Assembly (NCBI GenBank): GCA_045599485.1 | Contig: JAZRWA010000062.1 | Coordinates: 10,072 to 42,071, forward strand | Origin: Clostridia bacterium | GTDB taxonomy: Bacteria; Bacillota; Clostridia; Christensenellales; Aristaeellaceae | Reading direction: 5' to 3' | Length of the DNA stretch: 32,000 nt | Shown here: positions 1,902 through 30,551 of the stretch, piece after piece | How positions within the stretch are numbered: position 1 is the first letter of the stretch | Layout: every line of letters begins with the position of its first letter | Program-made: the position numbers and the translations under genes | Notes under the pieces: model-generated | What the model was told of the DNA's origin: nothing | Database searches by the model: none | The model's input: the letters and a program-made list of their open reading frames with translations, nothing else

Positions 1902-1942
1902 GGCGCTTCGTTTTCCCCTGCGGAAACGGAGTGCCTTTTTTG
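1902..1942 (+). terminator. Intrinsic terminator after the HAD gene
   Basis: Imperfect GC-rich hairpin GGCGCTTCGTTTTCC / GGAAACGGAGTGCC followed by TTTTTTG. Confidence 0.5.
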
Positions 1943-1949
1943 TACGCGA

Positions 1950-2194
1950 ATATTATACATGGCGGAGGTCAAAGCGAACATGGCCCTGTATGGCCTCGTA
2001 TGGCCCTGCAGGTCAACAAACGGCATGCGTTTGATAACGGTCAGGGCATCGGCAAGCAAGGATGCACTGCCGACCATCATCCAATTGACTTCGTTGATGA
2101 CCGCAGAAGTACCGATGACGGAAATAGCAGTCTGACAGACCGTCTTCAAAGCACGAATGCCGGCACACTTCAACCACAGTTTCCAATTCTTCAT
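1950..2194 (-). pseudogene. Phage holin-like fragment; only the N-terminal part resembles holins
   Basis: The minus-strand ORF starts MKNWKLWLKCAGIRALKTVCQTAISVIGTSAVINEVNWMMVGSASLLA, which resembles the N-terminal TM segments of LL-H-type phage holins. Resemblance is lost after roughly 50 codons, and the ORF then runs by chance antisense through the HAD gene (track ORF 968-2194). The 3' limit is uncertain. Confidence 0.3.
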
Positions 2195-2225
2195 GTTTTA
2201 TTCTCCTTTCGTATTGATTGCAATT

Positions 2226-2286
2226 GCATATAAAAAGCACTGATTGTGATCAGTGCTGATTATTGATTGTGGCATATAAAAAGCAC
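2226..2286. repeat. Direct repeat of the 15-mer GCATATAAAAAGCAC (2226-2240 and 2272-2286), each copy leading into one of the two hairpins
   Basis: Exact 15/15 identity read directly from the sequence. Confidence 0.7.
2227..2257 (-). terminator. Intrinsic terminator (minus strand), distal copy of a tandem pair
   Basis: Perfect 9-bp stem AGCACTGAT / ATCAGTGCT with a 4-nt loop. On the minus strand it is followed by TTTTTATAT. Confidence 0.55.
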
Positions 2287-2305
2287 CATGCAAAATGCAT
2301 AGTGC
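2274..2305 (-). terminator. Intrinsic terminator (minus strand), proximal copy downstream of the small ORF
   Basis: 10-bp stem GCACCATGCA / TGCATAGTGC. Its single mismatch becomes a G-U pair only on the minus-strand RNA. It is followed on the minus strand by TTTTTATAT. Confidence 0.55.
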
Positions 2306-2330
2306 CTGATTCTGAATGCTGCTTGTTATA

Positions 2331-2564
2331 TCAAGCACATTCTTCTAACACGACATCTTTCAATTTTTCTCTTAATGGCACACCATCAATTTTGTACCTG
2401 TCAAGCATATCGTCTGCGGTGTCATAGTACCTTTCGTTTTCTGTGTTCCTTTCGCAAATCAACAATTGGTTATAACAGGTCATAACAATAAACTTAAAAT
2501 CGCCACAATGCATCATGATATCATCATGCTATTCGATAAGATCATTAAACTGTTTAATTGTCAT
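2331..2564 (-). CDS. Small hypothetical protein (77 codons) with an in-frame TAG at 2529-2531 (codon 12); positioned like an immunity gene after the MuF-type gene
   Basis: GAGGTG lies 9 nt upstream of the ATG at 2564-2562. The reading is MTIKQFNDLIE-TAG-HDDIMMHCGDFKFIV.... The track ORF start at 2516 has no Shine-Dalgarno sequence. TGA stop at 2331-2333. I recognise no family. Confidence 0.35.
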
Positions 2565-2618
2565 GATAGTTTTCACCTCTTTTGATGATATCCTGATTGT
2601 TCACAAGTTCCTGTTCCG

Positions 2619-3278
2619 TCAATGGCATTGGTACTCCATGCGGATTCCTTTTTTGGTGTTTATTTGGTGCTTGTGCGCTCCAGTTGTATGCTTTTGTGGC
2701 ATTCCATGATCACTTGTGTCAAAGTCAATGTAGGCGTATCCATCATTTCCGTAAACTCGTCTTTGAAGTACCTTCCCACCGTCATCAACTTTGTCAGTGA
2801 TAGAATCAGGATTGCTTTTGAAAGGTAAACCATTCATCAAATCTGAATTGTTTATTACCTGTCTTTCGTTAAGCATCATTCTGTATCCATCTTCTATTTT
2901 ACCACTTTTCCCAGTATTTTCAACGGTTTTTGTGGCATTCAGATACTTTTCACGGAACAATTCAAACTGATCAGATTTATCCAGTTGGAAATATTCCGCT
3001 TTGGCTTGCATCCGCTTCAGTTCGTCTTCATCCAATGCCCACTTTGCCCTGGTCAGCGCACAGCATCGACAGTTGATATCCTCGGAAGGAATGCCGAATT
3101 GAAAAGGATACTGCGCTTCCATACCTTCCACTTCAAACGGCTTGCCCTGGTCACGGATCTGACCGTCAAGCAGTCTGTGTGTGTAGCGTGTAGCACCGTC
3201 CATGGTGACATCCCATTCTTTGACGATATCGTGGCTGATTTGACTGCCGTTGACAAAACGAATAAACAGGGATATCAT
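2619..3278 (-). CDS. C-terminal portion of a MuF/SPP1-gp7-type phage head-morphogenesis protein with an uncharacterised C-terminal extension; N-terminally truncated relative to the family
   Basis: WDVTMDGATRYTHRLLDGQ...KPFEV...EDINCRCCAL matches the conserved core of the Mu F / gp7 family (W.t..D.r.R..H..l.G...F....NCRC). About 120 further residues follow, ending ...GYAYIDFDTSDHGMPQKHTTGAHKH.... An in-frame TAA sits immediately upstream of the ATG, so the normal N-terminal half is missing. TGA stop. Confidence 0.5.
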   Translation of the reverse strand: MISLFIRFVNGSQISHDIVKEWDVTMDGATRYTHRLLDGQIRDQGKPFEVEGMEAQYPFQFGIPSEDINCRCCALTRAKWALDEDELKRMQAKAEYFQLDKSDQFELFREKYLNATKTVENTGKSGKIEDGYRMMLNERQVINNSDLMNGLPFKSNPDSITDKVDDGGKVLQRRVYGNDGYAYIDFDTSDHGMPQKHTTGAHKHQINTKKGIRMEYQCH

Positions 3279-6413: not shown

Positions 6414-6506
6414 GAATGAATAAACAGTAAACAGTTTTTGAATAATGCCCCGGAATCATTGCAAAAACGGAAGCATCGGGGGTACACTCACAGGGAGGGC
6501 ACAAGG

Positions 6507-8873
6507 ATGATGACGGACCGGACGCTGCGCGTGCTGGAATTCAACAAGATCCTGCTTCGACTGGCGGAATCCGCCGTCACGGAGATGGGACGGGAAAAAT
6601 GTATGGCACTGCGCCCCACCGATAATCTGGCTCTGGCGGAGGATATGCTGCAGGAAACGGAGGAGGCACAGGTCATACTGACCTATCTGGGCGAAAGCCC
6701 GCTCATTCCTTTCAATGATGTGCGGCATTCCCTGACCATTGCCGGAAAGGGCGGTGTGCTGGGCATGAAGGCATTGCTGGACATTGCCCGGTGCCTGTCT
6801 GCCGCAAGAGCCGCCCGGACCGCCCTGGTGACGGAGCGGGAAAACACCCCGCATCTGACGCGTCTTGCCAGCAATCTGCAAACCTTCCGTATGCTGTAGG
6901 ATGCTATCAACGGTGCCATTATCAGCGAGGAAGAGATGTCCGACCATGCCAGCCCCGCGCTGGCGGATATCCGCCGTCACATCCGTCAGGCCAATGAACG
7001 TGTGCGTGAGAAGCTGAACAGCATGGTGCATGGCGGCGGTTTTTCCAAATACCTGCAGGAAAACATCGTAACCATGCGTGACGGCCGCTACTGCGTGCCC
7101 GTCAAGCAGGAATACCGGCAGATGGTGCCCGGTCTGGTGCATGACCAGAGCGCGACAGGCGCTACCATCTTTGTGGAACCCATGGCGGTGGTGGAGCTGG
7201 GCAACGACCTGAAGCAGTGGGCGGTCAAGGAAAAGGAAGAAATCACCCGCATCCTGGCTGAGCTTTCCGCCCGGGTGGGAGAGCAGAGCGAACTGATCGA
7301 AAACAATGTGGATCTGCTGGCCCGACTGGATTTTATCTTCTGCAAGGGTCATTTATCCCGGGAAATGCGCGGTGTGCTGCCGCACATGAACCGCGAAGGA
7401 AGGGTCAGGCTGGTGCGGGCAAGGCATCCGCTGATCGATCCCGAAAAGGTCGTGCCCTGCGATCTGTGGATGGGACAGGATTTTACCACCCTCATCATTA
7501 CCGGTCCCAATACGGGCGGCAAAACGGTTACGCTTAAAACGGTGGGTCTGCTGAGCCTGATGGCGCAGGCAGGCTTGCATGTGCCGGCTGATCTTGGTAC
7601 CGAGCTGGCGGTCTTTGGACAGATCTTTGCCGATATCGGCGACGAACAGAGCATTGAGCAATCCCTGTCCACCTTCTCCTCCCACATGAAGAACATTGTC
7701 GATATTCTCTCCAATGTGGAGCAGAACGATCTGGTGCTGTTTGACGAGCTGGGAGCGGGCACAGATCCCACCGAAGGCGCGGCGCTGGCGCAGACCATTC
7801 TGGATACCCTGCTGAAGCGCGGCATCCGCACAGTGGCGACCACGCATTACAGCGAGCTCAAGGCGTACGCCCTTTCCACCCCCGGTGCTGAAAACGCCAG
7901 TGTGGAGTTTGACGTCAGCACGCTTCGCCCCACGTACAAGCTGTCCATCGGTGTACCGGGCAAATCCAATGCCTTTGAGATCAGCCGCAAGCTGGGCTTG
8001 AGCGCGGGCATTATCGAGCGGGCGAAGGAGCTGCTTTCCGCCAATGATGTGCGCTTTGAGGATGTCATAGCCGGTGCCGAATACCAGCGTCAGGTGGCAG
8101 CCAAAGAGCGGGAAGCGGCGGAAAAGGCGAGGGCGGAAGCGATCCATCTGCGGCAGGAGGCCGAGCGGCTGTACCGCGAAACGGAAGAAAAGCATCAGCA
8201 CGCCGAAAAGAAGGCCAAGGAAGAAGCACGGCGCATTGTTGAGAAGGCGCGCCGGGAAGCGGAAGAAGTGATCGGCGAGTTGAAAAATATGAAAAAAGAA
8301 GGCGCCGCGGGGCGTGAGGGTGATATCAACCGCCTGCGCCGCCGTATGCAGGACAGCGCCGACAGCGTAGCGGAGGGCATCCAGGGCACGCAGACCCTGA
8401 CACAGGCCCCCAAGACGCTGAACGTGGGGGACACCGTGGATATTCTGCACCTCAACACCCGCGGCACCGTGCTGAGCAAGCCCGACGCCAACGGCGATGT
8501 GCAGGTGCAGGCGGGCATTCTCAAGCTGAAGGCCAACCTGAGCCAGCTGCGTCCTGTGCAGGAAAAAAAGAGCGAAGTCAAAAAGAAAAAAAGTGCTGTC
8601 ATGGTGCACACGGGCACTGCAAGCCGCACTGTACACATGGAGTGCGATGTGCGCGGCATGAGCCTTTAGGAAGCGCTGATGGAAGTGGACCAGTACCTGG
8701 ACGAAGCCATTCTGGCGGGTCTTGGTGAGGTGGGTATCGTCCATGGCAAAGGCATGGGCGTGCTGCGCAGCGGTATCCAGCGGCATTTGAAAATGAATCC
8801 GCAGGTCCGCTCCTTCCGCCTGGGTCAGTACGGTGAGGGCGAGGACGGCGTGACCATTGTGACCCTGAAATAA
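6507..8873 (+). CDS. mutS2: Endonuclease MutS2 (788 codons) with two in-frame TAGs at 6897-6899 (codon 131) and 8667-8669 (codon 721)
   Basis: RBS GGGAGGG lies upstream of the ATG at 6507. Walker [31 protein letters not shown] and TTHYSELK are present, followed by a charged coiled-coil and a C-terminal Smr domain ([17 protein letters not shown]). Track pieces 6438-6899, 6936-8669 and 8679-8873 all share one frame. TAA stop. Confidence 0.88.
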
Positions 8874-8894
8874 TATCGAGCGGAGGCAAATGCG

Positions 8895-9587
8895 ATGACG
8901 AATGAAAAAAGCTTTATCATGGTTGTGGATGATGACCCCAACATTGCGGGCCTTGTGGAGTTGTGCCTGAAAAAAGAGGGCTACGAGGTACAGACCTATA
9001 ACCGCGGTGATACCGCGATGGAAGCATTTCGTCAGAATCCGCCGCAGATGATGATCCTGGATATCATGATGCCCGGAATGGACGGCTGGCAGGTCTGCCG
9101 GTCGGTGCGTCAGATCTCGCAGATCCCCATTATCATGCTGACTGCCAAGGGGGAGACCTTTGACAAGGTGCTGGGGCTGGAACTCGGCGCGGATGACTAC
9201 ATCACCAAGCCCTTTGACAACAAGGAGCTGGCCGCCCGTGTCAAGGCGGTGCTGCGCCGTACGATGCCGAGCGAGGGGGAAAAGAATACCCTCTCCTTCC
9301 CGGGTCTGACGGTGAGCCTGGAAAAGTACGAGGTTTATTATCAAGGGCATGCGGTCGATATGCCGCCCAAGGAGCTGGAGGTATTGTACTTCCTGGCTTC
9401 CCATCAGAACCGCGTGTTTACGCGTGAACAGCTTTTGGAGCAGGTGTGGGGCTTTGACTTTTTCGGCGACAGCCGCACGGTGGATGTGCACATCAAGCGC
9501 TTGAGGGAAAAACTGATCGGCTGCGAGGAATATGGCTGGCAGATCCGCACGGTGTGGAGCGTCGGCTACAAATTTGAAGTGAAATGA
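8895..9587 (+). CDS. OmpR/PhoB-family response regulator
   Basis: Receiver domain (VVDDDP...ILDIMMPGMDG...LTAKG) plus a winged-helix output domain (LSFPGLTV...ELEVLYFLASHQNRVFTREQLL...VDVHIKRLREKL...IRTVWSVGYKF). RBS GGAGG. TGA stop. Confidence 0.9.
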   Translation: MTNEKSFIMVVDDDPNIAGLVELCLKKEGYEVQTYNRGDTAMEAFRQNPPQMMILDIMMPGMDGWQVCRSVRQISQIPIIMLTAKGETFDKVLGLELGADDYITKPFDNKELAARVKAVLRRTMPSEGEKNTLSFPGLTVSLEKYEVYYQGHAVDMPPKELEVLYFLASHQNRVFTREQLLEQVWGFDFFGDSRTVDVHIKRLREKLIGCEEYGWQIRTVWSVGYKFEVK

Positions 9588-11059
9588 AAAAACGATGGAG
9601 CGGCATGTATGCGCGGCTGATGACCATGGTGCTGGCAGTGATCCTGGTATGTGTCCTGTCCCTGGTCAGCATCTTCTGGTTTGCTTCGCGCAACAACTAT
9701 ATTTCCACCCGCATGGAAGAGCTGAAGGTGCAGGCGTATGACCTGGCCTATATGGCCAGCCGTGTGCGCAACAACACGGTGGCGGAAAACTTTATGCACG
9801 TCAGCACAACGGCGGATTATATCAAATGGAAGGTCAACCGCATCTACAACGACTTTTCCGCTTACGCTGTGGTGGTGGACCGCACAGGGCAGACCACAGT
9901 GTACATCACCCCGGACATGCTTGAGACCGAAATGGTCGATTTTGACCGGGAACTGGTGGTCAGTACGCTGCGTCAGGTGTTGACCGGGCAGGAGATCGTG
10001 ACCAGCGTCCAGAGCGAATCGGGTCCCATGTTTACGGTGGCGGTTCCATGGATCGATAACGGCACGGTGCTGGGCGCTGTATTTGTACAGACCGCGGCAC
10101 AGACGGTTTACAGCGGCTTTCATTCCCTCATCTGGCAGGTCGTGCTGGCGGCGTTGATCGTGATGATCTGTTCGGCGCTGGTGGTGCTGCTCATCACACG
10201 ACCCATGATCCGCCCGCTCAAGCAGATGGCGGCGGTTTCCCGCGAGATGGCGGAGGGACGCTTCGGCCGCCGTGTTCCCGAAAGCGGCAGCCTGGAGACC
10301 CGGGAACTGGCACATGCCTTCAATATCATGGCTACGCAGCTGGATGAGCTGGAGCAGACGCGCAAGGATTTTATCGCCAATGTATCGCATGAGCTGCGCT
10401 CGCCCATGACCAGCATACAGGGTTACCTGCAGTGCATGGCGGACGGCACCATCGACCGCGAGGAACAGGGACGGTACATGCAGATCGTGCTGGACGAGAC
10501 CAAACGGCTTTCCCGTCTGGTGGGCAACCTGCTGAACCTGTCCCGCATGGAAAACGGCACCACTGAACTGGCGTTGAGCGATTTTGACATTCACGAAAGC
10601 ATTCGACGCGTGATCATTGCCAATATGACCCAGCTGGATGAAAAGAACATGGAGCCGGAGCTGACCTTTGGCGGCGAACCGCTCTATGCCCATGCCGATG
10701 CCGAGCAGATCTATCAGGTGCTGACCAACCTCCTCAGCAATGCCGTCAAGTATACGCAGGAGGGCGGCAAGATCACCTTGGGTACCCGTGTGGAGGACAA
10801 GCTGATCCATGTAACGGTGGCGGATAACGGACCGGGCATTGCACCATAGGATGCCCCGCACATTTTTGACCGCTTCTATAAGGCGGACAAGGCTCATACG
10901 GTGGGCAAGGGTACCGGTCTGGGGCTGGCCATCTGCAAATGCATCATGGACAAGCATGGTCATCAGCTGCGGCTGCTCCCCTCGGACCGGGGCAGCGTGT
11001 TTGAATTTACTTTGGATCTGGGAAAGGAGCCGCCGCGGCACATTGAAAATGAAGCTTGA
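9584..11059 (+). CDS. Sensor histidine kinase (TM, HAMP, HisKA, HATPase_c; 491 codons) with an in-frame TAG at 10847-10849 (codon 422)
   Basis: H-box [16 protein letters not shown] and N-box LLSNAVKYT are present, followed by [46 protein letters not shown] (G1, F and G2 boxes continue in frame after the TAG). The start overlaps the regulator's stop (ATGA). True stop is TGA at 11057-11059. Confidence 0.85.
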
Positions 11060-21966: not shown

Positions 21967-21997
21967 GAAAATGCCATGAATGGCTGAAGGAGCGTAT

Positions 21998-23302
21998 ATG
22001 AAACGAAAGGGCGGCATTTCCCCGGTGGGATTGATGGTCATTATCATTCTGATCGTACTGATCATTGTCTTTTTTGCGGCGGCATGGGAAAACCATGCCC
22101 GCTATCAAAAGGAAGCGGCGGTGACACCGACGCCTTCCATCACGCCGCGTACTGTTCGCATTACGGAAGACCCGGCGTATCCGACCTCCACCCCCACGCC
22201 GTGCGTGCTGCAGGTGAATTCGGTTGGCATTGAGGTAAAACAATTGCAGGAGCGGCTGAAGGAGCTGGAGTATTATACCGGCACGGTGGACGGTCAGTAC
22301 GGAAACGGCACCAAAGCCGCCGTCAAGGCTTTTCAGGAGCAGCACAGGCTGACAGCTGACGGCATCGCCGGCGATAAGACGATCGCTCTGCTGTATTCGG
22401 CTTCCGCGCAGGTGTTTGTGCCTACGCCCACTCCTTCGCCTACGCCCGCGCTTTTGTCCAACGGCAGCAATGGCGAGGAAGTCAAAATGCTGCAGGAGCG
22501 CCTGAAGGTGCTGGGGTATTATTCCGGCACGGTGGACGGTGCCTTTGGCAGCGGTACCAAGGCGGCGGTGAAGCTTTTCCAGCAGCAAAACGGCCTTGAG
22601 GCGGACGGCGTGGCGGGCCAGAAAACGCTGGCGCTGTTGTATTCCGACGCCGCCAAACATGTAACGATCACCCCCACCCCGGAACTGATCCAGGTGCTGA
22701 ACGGTTCTGTGCCGATGCTGGTCAACAAGCAGCATACGGTGGCCAAGGATTTTGTACCGGCAGACCTGGTGGATATGAGCGCTTATTGCCCGTCTTCGCT
22801 GGTCAAGATCAAATACAGCGGCACCAAGGGTCAGCGGGATGCCGTGAATGCCCTGGTGTTTATGCTGCAGGCGGCAGCGGCGGACGGCATCACCAACTGG
22901 CAGGTGAGCGCGGCGTACCGCAGCTATGCCGATCAGCAAAGCATGATGGATTCCAAAATTCGCTCCTATATGGAGAACAACAACATGTCCCGCTCGCAGG
23001 CGGCCAGCGCTGCCAGCCGTACGGTGGCGCAGCCGGGCGCCAGTGAGCACCACACCGGTCTGGCTTTTGACATGACGGTGCCCAATACCAGCACCTTCCT
23101 TGGCACCAAGCAGTGCACCTGGCTGCATCAGCACTGCTGGGAATACGGCTTCATCATCCGCTATACCGAATAGAAAAAGGATATTACGGGTTTTGAGGCG
23201 GAGGCGTGGCACATCCGCTATGTGGGCAAGGAACACAGTGAGAATATCCGCAGGCTGAACATGTGCCTGGAGGAATATGTGGACTTCCTGAACAAAAAAT
23301 AA
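21998..23302 (+). CDS. Membrane-anchored D-Ala-D-Ala carboxypeptidase (VanY / peptidase M15B) with two PG_binding_1 repeats; 434 codons with an in-frame TAG at 23171-23173 (codon 392)
   Basis: TM anchor ISPVGLMVIIILIVLIIVFF. The repeat G..V..LQERLK.LGYY.G.VDG.FG.GTK.AV..FQ occurs twice. M15B motifs AAYRSYADQ and SEHHTGLAFD are present, followed by GFIIRYTE-TAG-KKDITGFEAEAWHIRYVG (the ExxH motif lies after the TAG, in the same frame). RBS GAAGGAG. TAA stop at 23300-23302. Confidence 0.82.
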
Positions 23303-29468: not shown

Positions 29469-30551
29469 TCAGAAAGATGCAATGATCTCCGGCGTCATCG
29501 AGCGGACGACTGCTTCCGCCAGCTGAACGGAGGACTCAAAATCCTAAAGGGTACAGATGCCGTTCATGGAGTGGATGTAGCGTACCGGCACACCGGCGAC
29601 TACGGAAGGAATGCCCTCCAGCGCAGTATTGATGACGGCAGCGTCATTGCCGCCGCCCTCGCGGACAGAATCCTGCGCCTTGATCCCCTTCTATGCGGCC
29701 AAATCGAGCACATAACGCTGGTAGCGCGGGGAACAGATGACCGATACATCCATGTGCCGCAGCATGGGGCCGCGGCGCAGGGCGGTTTGAATGGCGTAGG
29801 ACGGGGTAAAGGTATCATCCGCCGGACAGCCCTCAAACACATAGGCGAGGTTGGGACGAACATGATTGACCGATACGCGGGCGCCTCTTTCGCCAACCTC
29901 TTCCTGGGCGGAAAGCACACCGACCACATCACAGGGCAGGTCGGCCCCTTTCAGCCTTTCCAGCGTTTCCAGCAGCGCGGCGACGCCGATGCGGCAGTCA
30001 AAGGCTTTGCCAAACAGCAGGCCTTTGCGGGTATCGGCCTGAAAACGGGAGGCGGGCACACCGGGCTCACCGATGCGGATGTGGAAATCACGGATAGCCT
30101 CCTCCCGGCTGGTGGCGCCGATATCGATGACAAAGGACGAGATCTCCGGAACGCCGCCGCTCTTTTCCGCGGCGGTCTGAAAATGCACCGGCTTGGCGGC
30201 GATGACACCGGGCAGGTATTCGCCCAGAGCGTTGCGCACCAATACATCCGCGGAGGAGAGCGCCAGGGGGCTGAAGCGGCCCAAAGTGACAAAACGGAGC
30301 GTGCCGTTTTCGTGGATGGAGTGGATCATGAATCCCACTTCATCGCTGTGCGCGTCCAGCATGATGACCGGACGGTTCCCGGTGTTTTCATTGCGGTGGA
30401 TATACAGATTGCGCATGCAGTCTTCTTCAATGGGACCGATATCATGGGCAAGCTCACGGGCGACAGTGAGTACATCGTCCTAAAAACCGGAAGGACCGAA
30501 AGCGTTGGAAAGTTTTTCAATCATTTTCAGCTGTTGTTCAATGCTGCGCAT
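29469..30551 (-). CDS. M42-family metallo-aminopeptidase (glutamyl aminopeptidase / endoglucanase-like); 360 codons with three in-frame TAGs at 30480-30482, 29691-29693 and 29544-29546 (codons 24, 287, 336)
   Basis: RBS GAGGTG. The reading is MRSIEQQLKMIEKLSNAFGPSGF-TAG-DDVLTVARELA...VIMLDAHSDEVGFMI...SAQEEVGERGA...VLDLAA-TAG-KGIKAQDSVREGGGNDAAVI...VPVRYIHSMNGICTL-TAG-DFESSVQLAEAVV...SF, then TGA at 29469-29471. It is all one frame. HSDE, QEEVG and GG.NDA are the family metal or active-site motifs. Confidence 0.85.

Follow-up and report, generated by a model that had tools for sequence, protein, structure and literature searches.

A probable UAG-to-glutamate codon in an uncultured gut member of the Clostridia

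The 32-kb stretch of DNA analysed here (the window; 32,000 nucleotides of contig JAZRWA010000062.1) is a chromosomal stretch, 56.6% GC, of an uncultured gut member of the Clostridia, and five of its genes contain TAG codons in frame. We conclude that UAG is probably a sense codon decoded as glutamate in this organism, on the basis of alignments that place glutamate at the positions of these TAGs. With somewhat less assurance, we propose that this would be a natural bacterial code at an early stage, in which UAG alone has passed from stop to glutamate, the family around this organism had by then lost its TAG terminators, the change from GAG to TAG is synonymous in this genus, and a few weakly constrained genes carry the new sense codon. 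The reassignment could be complete in the window's species alone.

In-frame TAGs and their homologue columns

In total, eight in-frame TAGs were verified in five genes, encoding the tRNA pseudouridine-55 synthase TruB, MutS2, a histidine kinase, a VanY-like peptidase and an M42 peptidase. The initial annotation of this sequence had placed one TAG at 10847-10849 (forward strand) within a kinase, and this codon is indeed in frame: it is codon 422 of the histidine kinase gene (HAMP, HisKA, HATPase_c), an open reading frame (ORF) at 9584-11059 on the forward strand that ends in TGA and is syntenic with a response regulator gene at 8895-9587. Its context is GPGIAP-X-DAPHIF, where X is the residue at the TAG, and it lies inside the HATPase_c match (residues 372-479). 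The truB gene (154-1056, forward; Pfam TruB_N and TruB_C_2; ending in TAA) has a TAG at 775-777, codon 208, within TruB_C_2 (residues 172-224). Two TAGs occur in the MutS2 gene (6504-8873, forward; Pfam MutS_V, MSSS and Smr; ending in TAA): site 1 at 6897-6899 is codon 132, and site 2 at 8667-8669 is codon 722, in the context RGMSL-X-EAL within the Smr match (residues 714-788). The gene for a peptidoglycan-binding D,D-carboxypeptidase of the VanY family (21980-23302, forward; Pfam; ending in TAA) has its TAG at 23171-23173, codon 398, in the context RYTE-X-KKDITG within the VanY domain (residues 285-417).

The M42 family metallopeptidase gene, on the reverse strand (29469-30548, ending in TGA), carries three TAGs: site 1 at 30480-30482 (codon 23, FGPSGF-X-DDV), site 2 at 29691-29693 (codon 286, LAA-X-KGI) and site 3 at 29544-29546 (codon 335, CTL-X-DFE). 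Its Peptidase_M42 match in Pfam (residues 50-344) spans two of them. Pfam matches run on across the TAGs in all five genes, and FGPSGFEDDVLTVAR is an example of a peptide that spans a TAG site. The contexts quoted in the initial annotation for the kinase, Smr and VanY sites and for the first two M42 sites are all present. Its total of nine TAGs in six genes did not hold: neither the ninth TAG nor the sixth gene was found, and the remaining long TAG-containing ORFs were rejected because they only shadow real genes, in antisense or in another frame.

Each protein, with X at the TAG, was aligned either with its 120 closest homologues from a collection of 5.8 billion proteins or with syntenic orthologues from 80 loci. 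Glutamate occupies the TAG column in all 120 closest homologues for TruB, for VanY and for M42 site 1, and in 78 of 80 orthologues for MutS2 site 1. At M42 site 1, the residue is also glutamate in all five aligned homologues in the Protein Data Bank, bacterial and archaeal, including archaeal TET peptidases. Among 60 syntenic orthologues of the kinase, the column holds E in 48, A in 8 and D in 2, and the nine nearest all have E. The other columns are those of MutS2 site 2 (D 47, E 29, G 2, Q 1), M42 site 2 (E 51, K 22, R 16, S 8, Q 8) and M42 site 3 (F 45, Y 20, A 14, T 11, E 9), with E in the two nearest homologues at the last site. All eight columns contain glutamate; in four it is the invariant or nearly invariant residue and in one more it dominates. 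Glutamine is missing from five of the eight.

These columns were combined in a likelihood model built on de-duplicated contexts with background pseudocounts. The summed log10 likelihood was -2.3 for glutamate, followed by alanine (-13.4), aspartate (-14.1), glutamine (-16.4) and arginine (-16.4); lysine and tyrosine fell outside the best eight residues. Glutamate was favoured over the runner-up, alanine, with log10 odds of 11.1 (about 10^11). The identification of the residue as glutamate had initially been drawn from motifs of these families; the computed alignments agree with it, and more strongly than expected. The VanY site, which had been set aside as uninformative, turned out to have one of the clean columns.

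It had been pointed out that six TAGs are followed by a GAN codon, which is the case for six of the eight verified here; AAA or AAG follows the other two. The base after TAG is G in six and A in two, with no pyrimidine, against a purine background of 59% after GAG codons. Before the TAG, A is found in four of eight (9% before GAG) and C in none. The tetranucleotide CTAG is absent from the window, where about 120 copies are expected from base composition, and from the loci of the sister species described below; across all 80 relatives its observed/expected ratio is 0.006-0.028, an extreme avoidance that extends over the clade. Since CTAG is absent, no sense TAG is preceded by C.

Sister-species codons, terminators and genomic setting

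MutS2-centred loci from 80 GTDB species are syntenic with the window. The nearest public relative is 'Clostridia bacterium Horse_feces223' (GCA_024404275.1; loci L041 and L082), from horse faeces, a sister species with about 88-93% nucleotide identity to the window, whose proteins are the best public matches for TruB, VanY and M42 (94-96% identical). A second strain of this sister species is represented by locus L081 of an ENA assembly, as its 97.4% identity to L082 implies.

The codon of the sister species is GAG at the TruB site, at MutS2 site 1 (L041), at the VanY site (L082) and at M42 site 1. M42 codon 335 is TAG in L082, a public NCBI genome that shares it with the window, and GAG in strain L081. 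The kinase site and MutS2 site 2 lie outside the coverage of the sister contigs; over the remaining sites the sister-species counts are five GAG and one AAG. Synonymous codons would be expected to alternate in this way, as GAG and TAG do here between strains of 97.4% identity, and the shared TAG comes from an independent public assembly of a species different from that of the window. It had been remarked that TAG is one transversion away from GAG, and the GAG codons at sister-species positions support this route directly. Nonsense mutations usually reach TAG by transition, from CAG or TGG. Under the codon usage of the window, in which CAG (306) and GAG (305) are about equally common, GAG is the start of 21% of the single-base routes to TAG, and no window TAG is aligned with a CAG of the sister species.

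Public annotation of the sister species is affected at such TAG codons. In L082, the M42 gene (8360-9367) was called as a protein of 335 rather than 360 amino acids, the call stopping at the shared TAG, which is an annotation error caused by the code. In L081, the public call of a ROK kinase gene is split into two.

As a terminator, TAG is absent from the window: among its 25 complete genes, 15 end in TAA, 10 in TGA and none in TAG. Terminators in relatives were counted with a gene caller based on codon-usage log-likelihood and validated on the window. TAG ends 0 of 135 genes in L001-L010, the next relatives (72-78% MutS2 identity, outside the window's genus), 13 of 420 in L011-L040 and 48 of 442 in L042-L080. 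Counts based on orthologues gave 0 of 46 in L001-L010 and 22 of 248 overall, all of them in relatives with at most 63% MutS2 identity. With the same caller, the only TAG-ending ORFs in the window and the sister loci were ones with coding-like sequence continuing in frame behind them. An earlier estimate of about 10% TAG terminators in the nearest relatives, obtained with a longest-ORF caller, was rejected because that caller had picked antisense ORFs. The gradient suggests that TAG first disappeared as a terminator and only later returned to coding sequence. In L001-L010, no in-frame sense TAG was found in orthologues of the window proteins either, and relatives with neither terminator nor sense TAG fit the pattern expected of a codon-capture intermediate; TAG appears to be a nearly unused codon in these ten genomes.

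Once TAG is read as sense, the window contains 26 genes, every candidate having been checked against Pfam. Besides those described above, they include genes for a HAD hydrolase, a PPIase, a U32 peptidase, IspE, TrmO, an Opp-type ABC transporter, an esterase, MatE, an acyl-ACP thioesterase, a ROK kinase, a GltD-like oxidoreductase and RNase Y. The ispE gene starts (ATG at 11049) before the kinase gene has ended (stop codon TGA, 11057-11059), an overlap of 11 nucleotides that suggests translational coupling of unrelated functions. A low-GC insertion at 1940-3246 is missing from the sister genome (L041). It bears a reverse-strand ORF (2619-3278; GC of 0.51/0.34/0.45 at the three codon positions) with a truncated match to a phage Mu-F-like head-morphogenesis protein (PF04233, E 9.5e-6). 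The insertion is probably what is left of a prophage. The more distant loci are labelled Christensenellales, Aristaeellaceae or 'CAG:74'. One locus, L018 (CAVEOA010000005.1), is labelled 'Alloprevotella sp.', yet has a Clostridia-type locus of PPIase, MutS2, response regulator and kinase genes with 63% MutS2 identity to the window; this genome is likely mis-binned or mislabelled.

Alternative explanations and a possible decoder

If the TAGs were ordinary nonsense mutations, the five genes would be dead or truncated, which we consider extremely improbable. It is true that the affected genes are all dispensable and that isolated in-frame TAGs occur in relatives. In L037 (JAFXFR010000168.1), uvrC (ORF 9457-10314 and its continuation) has a TAG where four relatives of 94-99.5% identity have glutamine; this is an ordinary CAG-to-TAG nonsense variant, in contrast to the glutamate-site TAGs of the window. 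In L044 (JAVBUS010000289.1), a distant relative (61% identity), MutS2 has an in-frame TAG at query residue 231, where 80 of 80 sequences have glutamate; an isolated nonsense mutation or a fault in the assembly is the probable cause. A second recoded lineage in either of them was rejected, given the glutamine column in L037 and, in L044, a SpoIVA gene on the same contig that ends with TAG. By comparison, the window has eight in-frame TAGs in 9,673 codons and the orthologues from 81 related loci have two in aligned sequence of about 179,000 residues; the rate in the window is about 70-fold higher. This screen of relatives was limited to orthologues of verified window proteins, and an all-against-all screen of every ORF was dropped because it was swamped by conserved antisense frames. 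Neither TAA nor TGA occurs in frame in the five TAG-bearing genes, and none of these genes is frameshifted; for stops created at random by changes of one base, the probability that all eight would be TAG is 0.0075. Six or seven of the eight TAGs stand at glutamate positions and were reached by transversion, whereas nonsense mutations usually arise by transition. Past the first TAG, the ratio of nonsynonymous to synonymous substitution rates (dN/dS) relative to the sister species is 0.048 for M42 (336 codons), 0.017 for MutS2 (344 codons), 0.069 for TruB and 0.079 for VanY, with dS of about 0.25-0.64, values that indicate continuing purifying selection. The presence of three TAGs and no other lesion in M42 argues against a recently dead gene, and one of these TAGs is shared with a different species. 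A sequencing or assembly artefact, or G-to-T damage in the window's assembly, deserves just as little credence. Such an origin would agree with the changes relative to the sister species, which are mostly G to T, and with the fact that seven sites rest on one assembly, from a species without representation in the public collections searched. It would also hit GAA (to TAA) and GGA (to TGA) equally, but no such change was found, and with a G-to-T/C-to-A bias the probability that all eight stops are TAG falls to 2.4e-4. Motif-specific miscalling of GAGGA as TAGGA was ruled out by 59 GAGGA and 19 GAGGAT left intact in the window. Errors would not pick in-frame glutamate codons, and the codon-335 TAG recurs in an independent public genome.

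It is very unlikely that UAG is read as a residue other than glutamate, be it glutamine (as in phage code 15), lysine, tyrosine or pyrrolysine (Pyl). CAG, AAG and TAY are also one step from TAG, reassignments of UAG to glutamine in phages and to Pyl in archaea are known, and two sister-species codons, the AAG at M42 site 2 and a CAG replaced by TAG in the L081 ROK gene, would suit lysine and glutamine. Against this, the four invariant or nearly invariant glutamate columns contain no glutamine, lysine or tyrosine, and these residues fare as poorly in the likelihood model as reported above. CAG is as common as GAG and reaches TAG by transition, yet none of the window TAGs stands at a sister-species CAG. 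A match between Pyl sites and invariant glutamate columns would be unexpected, and so would Pyl at a glutamate conserved from bacteria to archaea, as at M42 site 1. Context-dependent recoding of the selenocysteine type is not supported by the flanks of the sites or by Rfam matching of the window: five unrelated protein families are involved, the flanks of the eight sites differ, the purine after TAG is their only shared feature, and no Rfam family matched. An unlikely, if less far-fetched, explanation is partial or ambiguous suppression, in which UAG is still a stop, release factor 1 (RF1) is present, and a glutamate-inserting suppressor tRNA sometimes reads through, so that a gene can bear an in-frame TAG only if it is dispensable or weakly expressed, and selection acts against TAG terminators. 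This would fit the non-essential kind of all five genes, the clustering of their TAGs, the absence of TAG from the Opp transporter, RNase Y, IspE and PPIase genes of the window, a possible genuine TAG terminator in L081 and the purine that follows all eight TAGs, which hints at a context effect. Under such suppression, however, M42 would need three successive read-throughs to be produced, in spite of the strong purifying selection on it (dN/dS 0.048); nor is a genuine TAG terminator seen in the window (0 of 25) or in L001-L010 (0 of 135). Suppression of this kind still inserts glutamate; it differs from a UAG-to-glutamate code in completeness only.

Several observations weigh against decoding of UAG as glutamate. 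Glutamate is not required in three of the columns (MutS2 site 2, M42 sites 2 and 3); aspartate is the residue of the nearest relatives at MutS2 site 2, and the sister-species codon at M42 site 2 encodes lysine. In the ROK kinase gene of L081, TAG (9355-9357) replaces a CAG, for glutamine, that is present in the window and in the other strain. A TPR gene of L081 ends in TAG at 1015-1017, with the next same-frame ATG 26 codons further on, and this TAG may be a genuine terminator; at -0.12 per codon, the score of the spacer resembles that of intergenic DNA. This gene may alternatively be a read-through fusion, for which Pfam gave no clear signal and the spacer scores as non-coding. The sample is small (eight sites in five genes) and clustered, with three sites in M42 and two in MutS2, and the genes are of a non-essential kind. 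No entry for the window's own species turned up in the public protein collection, exact look-ups of three window proteins returned no record, and seven of the eight TAGs depend on a single assembly. The dN/dS test has little force if the TAGs arose very recently. TAG terminators are rare family-wide (about 3%), and with such a low background their absence from the 25 window genes is not significant alone. Finally, no tRNA gene was found in the window or in 42 related loci.

A plausible mechanism for glutamate decoding can nevertheless be outlined. Most Bacillota are without a glutaminyl-tRNA synthetase; a non-discriminating glutamyl-tRNA synthetase (GluRS) charges both tRNA-Glu and tRNA-Gln with glutamate, and GatCAB then transamidates the latter. 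This GluRS already accepts C or G at anticodon position 36, and a glutamate-charged decoder of UAG is therefore plausible. The decoder would be a tRNA(CUA) with glutamate identity, most simply a duplicated tRNA-Glu(CUC) mutated to CUA, or alternatively a derivative of tRNA-Gln(CUG) that escapes transamidation by GatCAB; the non-discriminating enzyme found in most Bacillota would charge it. RF1 would have been lost or weakened, being dispensable once TAG terminators are gone. The route envisaged is codon capture: TAG terminators would vanish first in the surrounding clade, after which GAG-to-TAG changes, effectively synonymous, would accumulate, so far mainly in weakly constrained genes.

The RF1 gene prfA is not in the window, no Rfam family matched within it, and no pyl or methylamine methyltransferase gene is among its 26 genes. 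A 21-base pattern for tRNA-Glu(CUA), combining a Glu-type anticodon arm with CUA, had no match in JGI metagenomes, and a 17-base version had 120 matches there, mostly chance and one a real tRNA(CUA). The latter (L176, 3157-3234, reverse strand; Ga0209723_1014892) has a Glu-like D-arm and anticodon stem and a U1-A72 end, and lies 2 nucleotides from a tRNA-Gln(CUG) on a metagenome contig of 49% GC, for which no link to the window's genus was established; it is possibly a phage suppressor.

Relation to known codes

Full-text searches of the literature returned no report of a bacterial UAG-to-glutamate code, and reassignment of UAG to a standard amino acid was described there only in phages (glutamine) and eukaryotes. 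If our interpretation is true, this case would be without precedent among bacteria as a reassignment of UAG to a canonical amino acid, and without precedent outside eukaryotes as a stop-to-glutamate code, and it would mean that the RF1-specific codon can be captured naturally in a free-living, GC-balanced gut bacterium. It would also be a datable early-stage case, with relatives that have no TAG terminators and do not yet use sense TAG, and thus useful for testing codon-capture against ambiguous-intermediate models. Its natural pair of tRNA(CUA) and GluRS would be of interest for genetic-code engineering. Because standard gene callers truncate or split TAG-containing genes, as with M42 in L082 and ROK in L081, protein databases and completeness estimates for this lineage are wrong. 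The difference in code may also act as a barrier to phages and gene transfer.

Reassignment of a stop codon is a known kind of event; what appears new is the combination of domain, codon and amino acid, which also appears to have been caught early. According to Shulgina & Eddy 2021 (PMC8629427), all known bacterial code changes reassign UGA, and two 2026 surveys of prokaryotic codes, gTranslate and KACI, list UGA to tryptophan or glycine, changes of arginine codons and archaeal UAG to Pyl, with no bacterial reassignment of UAG. The UGA codes, namely table 4 (UGA to tryptophan; Mycoplasmatales, some endosymbionts and Eggerthellaceae) and table 25 (UGA to glycine; Gracilibacteria and Absconditabacteria), are likewise bacterial changes from stop to sense, were detected by in-frame stops at conserved columns, and have a plausible history of codon capture in which the codon was already rare. 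Here, unlike there, the codon is UAG and the factor RF1 rather than UGA and RF2, the amino acid is another one, the GC content is 56.6% and the genome is not reduced.

The pairing of UAG with glutamate is otherwise that of eukaryotic codes. NCBI table 30 is the code of peritrich ciliates and table 31 that of Blastocrithidia nonstop; UAA and UAG (UAR) encode glutamate in both. These are nuclear codes in which both UAA and UAG are reassigned and eRF1 is altered, whereas in the window UAA is the commonest terminator (15 of 25) and UAG alone is affected. The bacterial system of RF1 and RF2 lets UAG alone be freed. According to PMC12153298, Blastocrithidia reads UAR through cognate tRNA-Glu with anticodons complementary to the stop codons.

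In-frame TAG in genomes of the gut microbiome is also a feature of phages that use code 15. In crAss-like, Lak and other gut phages, TAG encodes glutamine, a phage-specific recoding proposed to time lytic gene expression (PMC9523058; 10.1101/2021.08.26.457843), and the phage uses a suppressor-type tRNA(CUA). The TAGs of the window, in contrast, lie in chromosomal housekeeping genes such as those for TruB and MutS2, in 32 kb syntenic with other Clostridia, and at glutamate columns. Pyl systems, of which a genome-wide one is reported in archaea (Kivenson et al. 2025, as cited in a preprint), are similar in that a prokaryote reads UAG as sense and is depleted of TAG terminators; they differ in that four of the eight TAG columns here are invariant or nearly invariant for glutamate, and the window has no pyl or methyltransferase genes. 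Laboratory amber suppression and the RF1-deleted Escherichia coli C321.deltaA with its descendants (PMC11903333) share the logic of this end state, which has no TAG terminators, leaves UAG free for a tRNA(CUA) and can dispense with RF1. There the state was engineered, whereas the organism of the window would be a natural lineage that arrived at it unaided and assigns UAG to a canonical amino acid.

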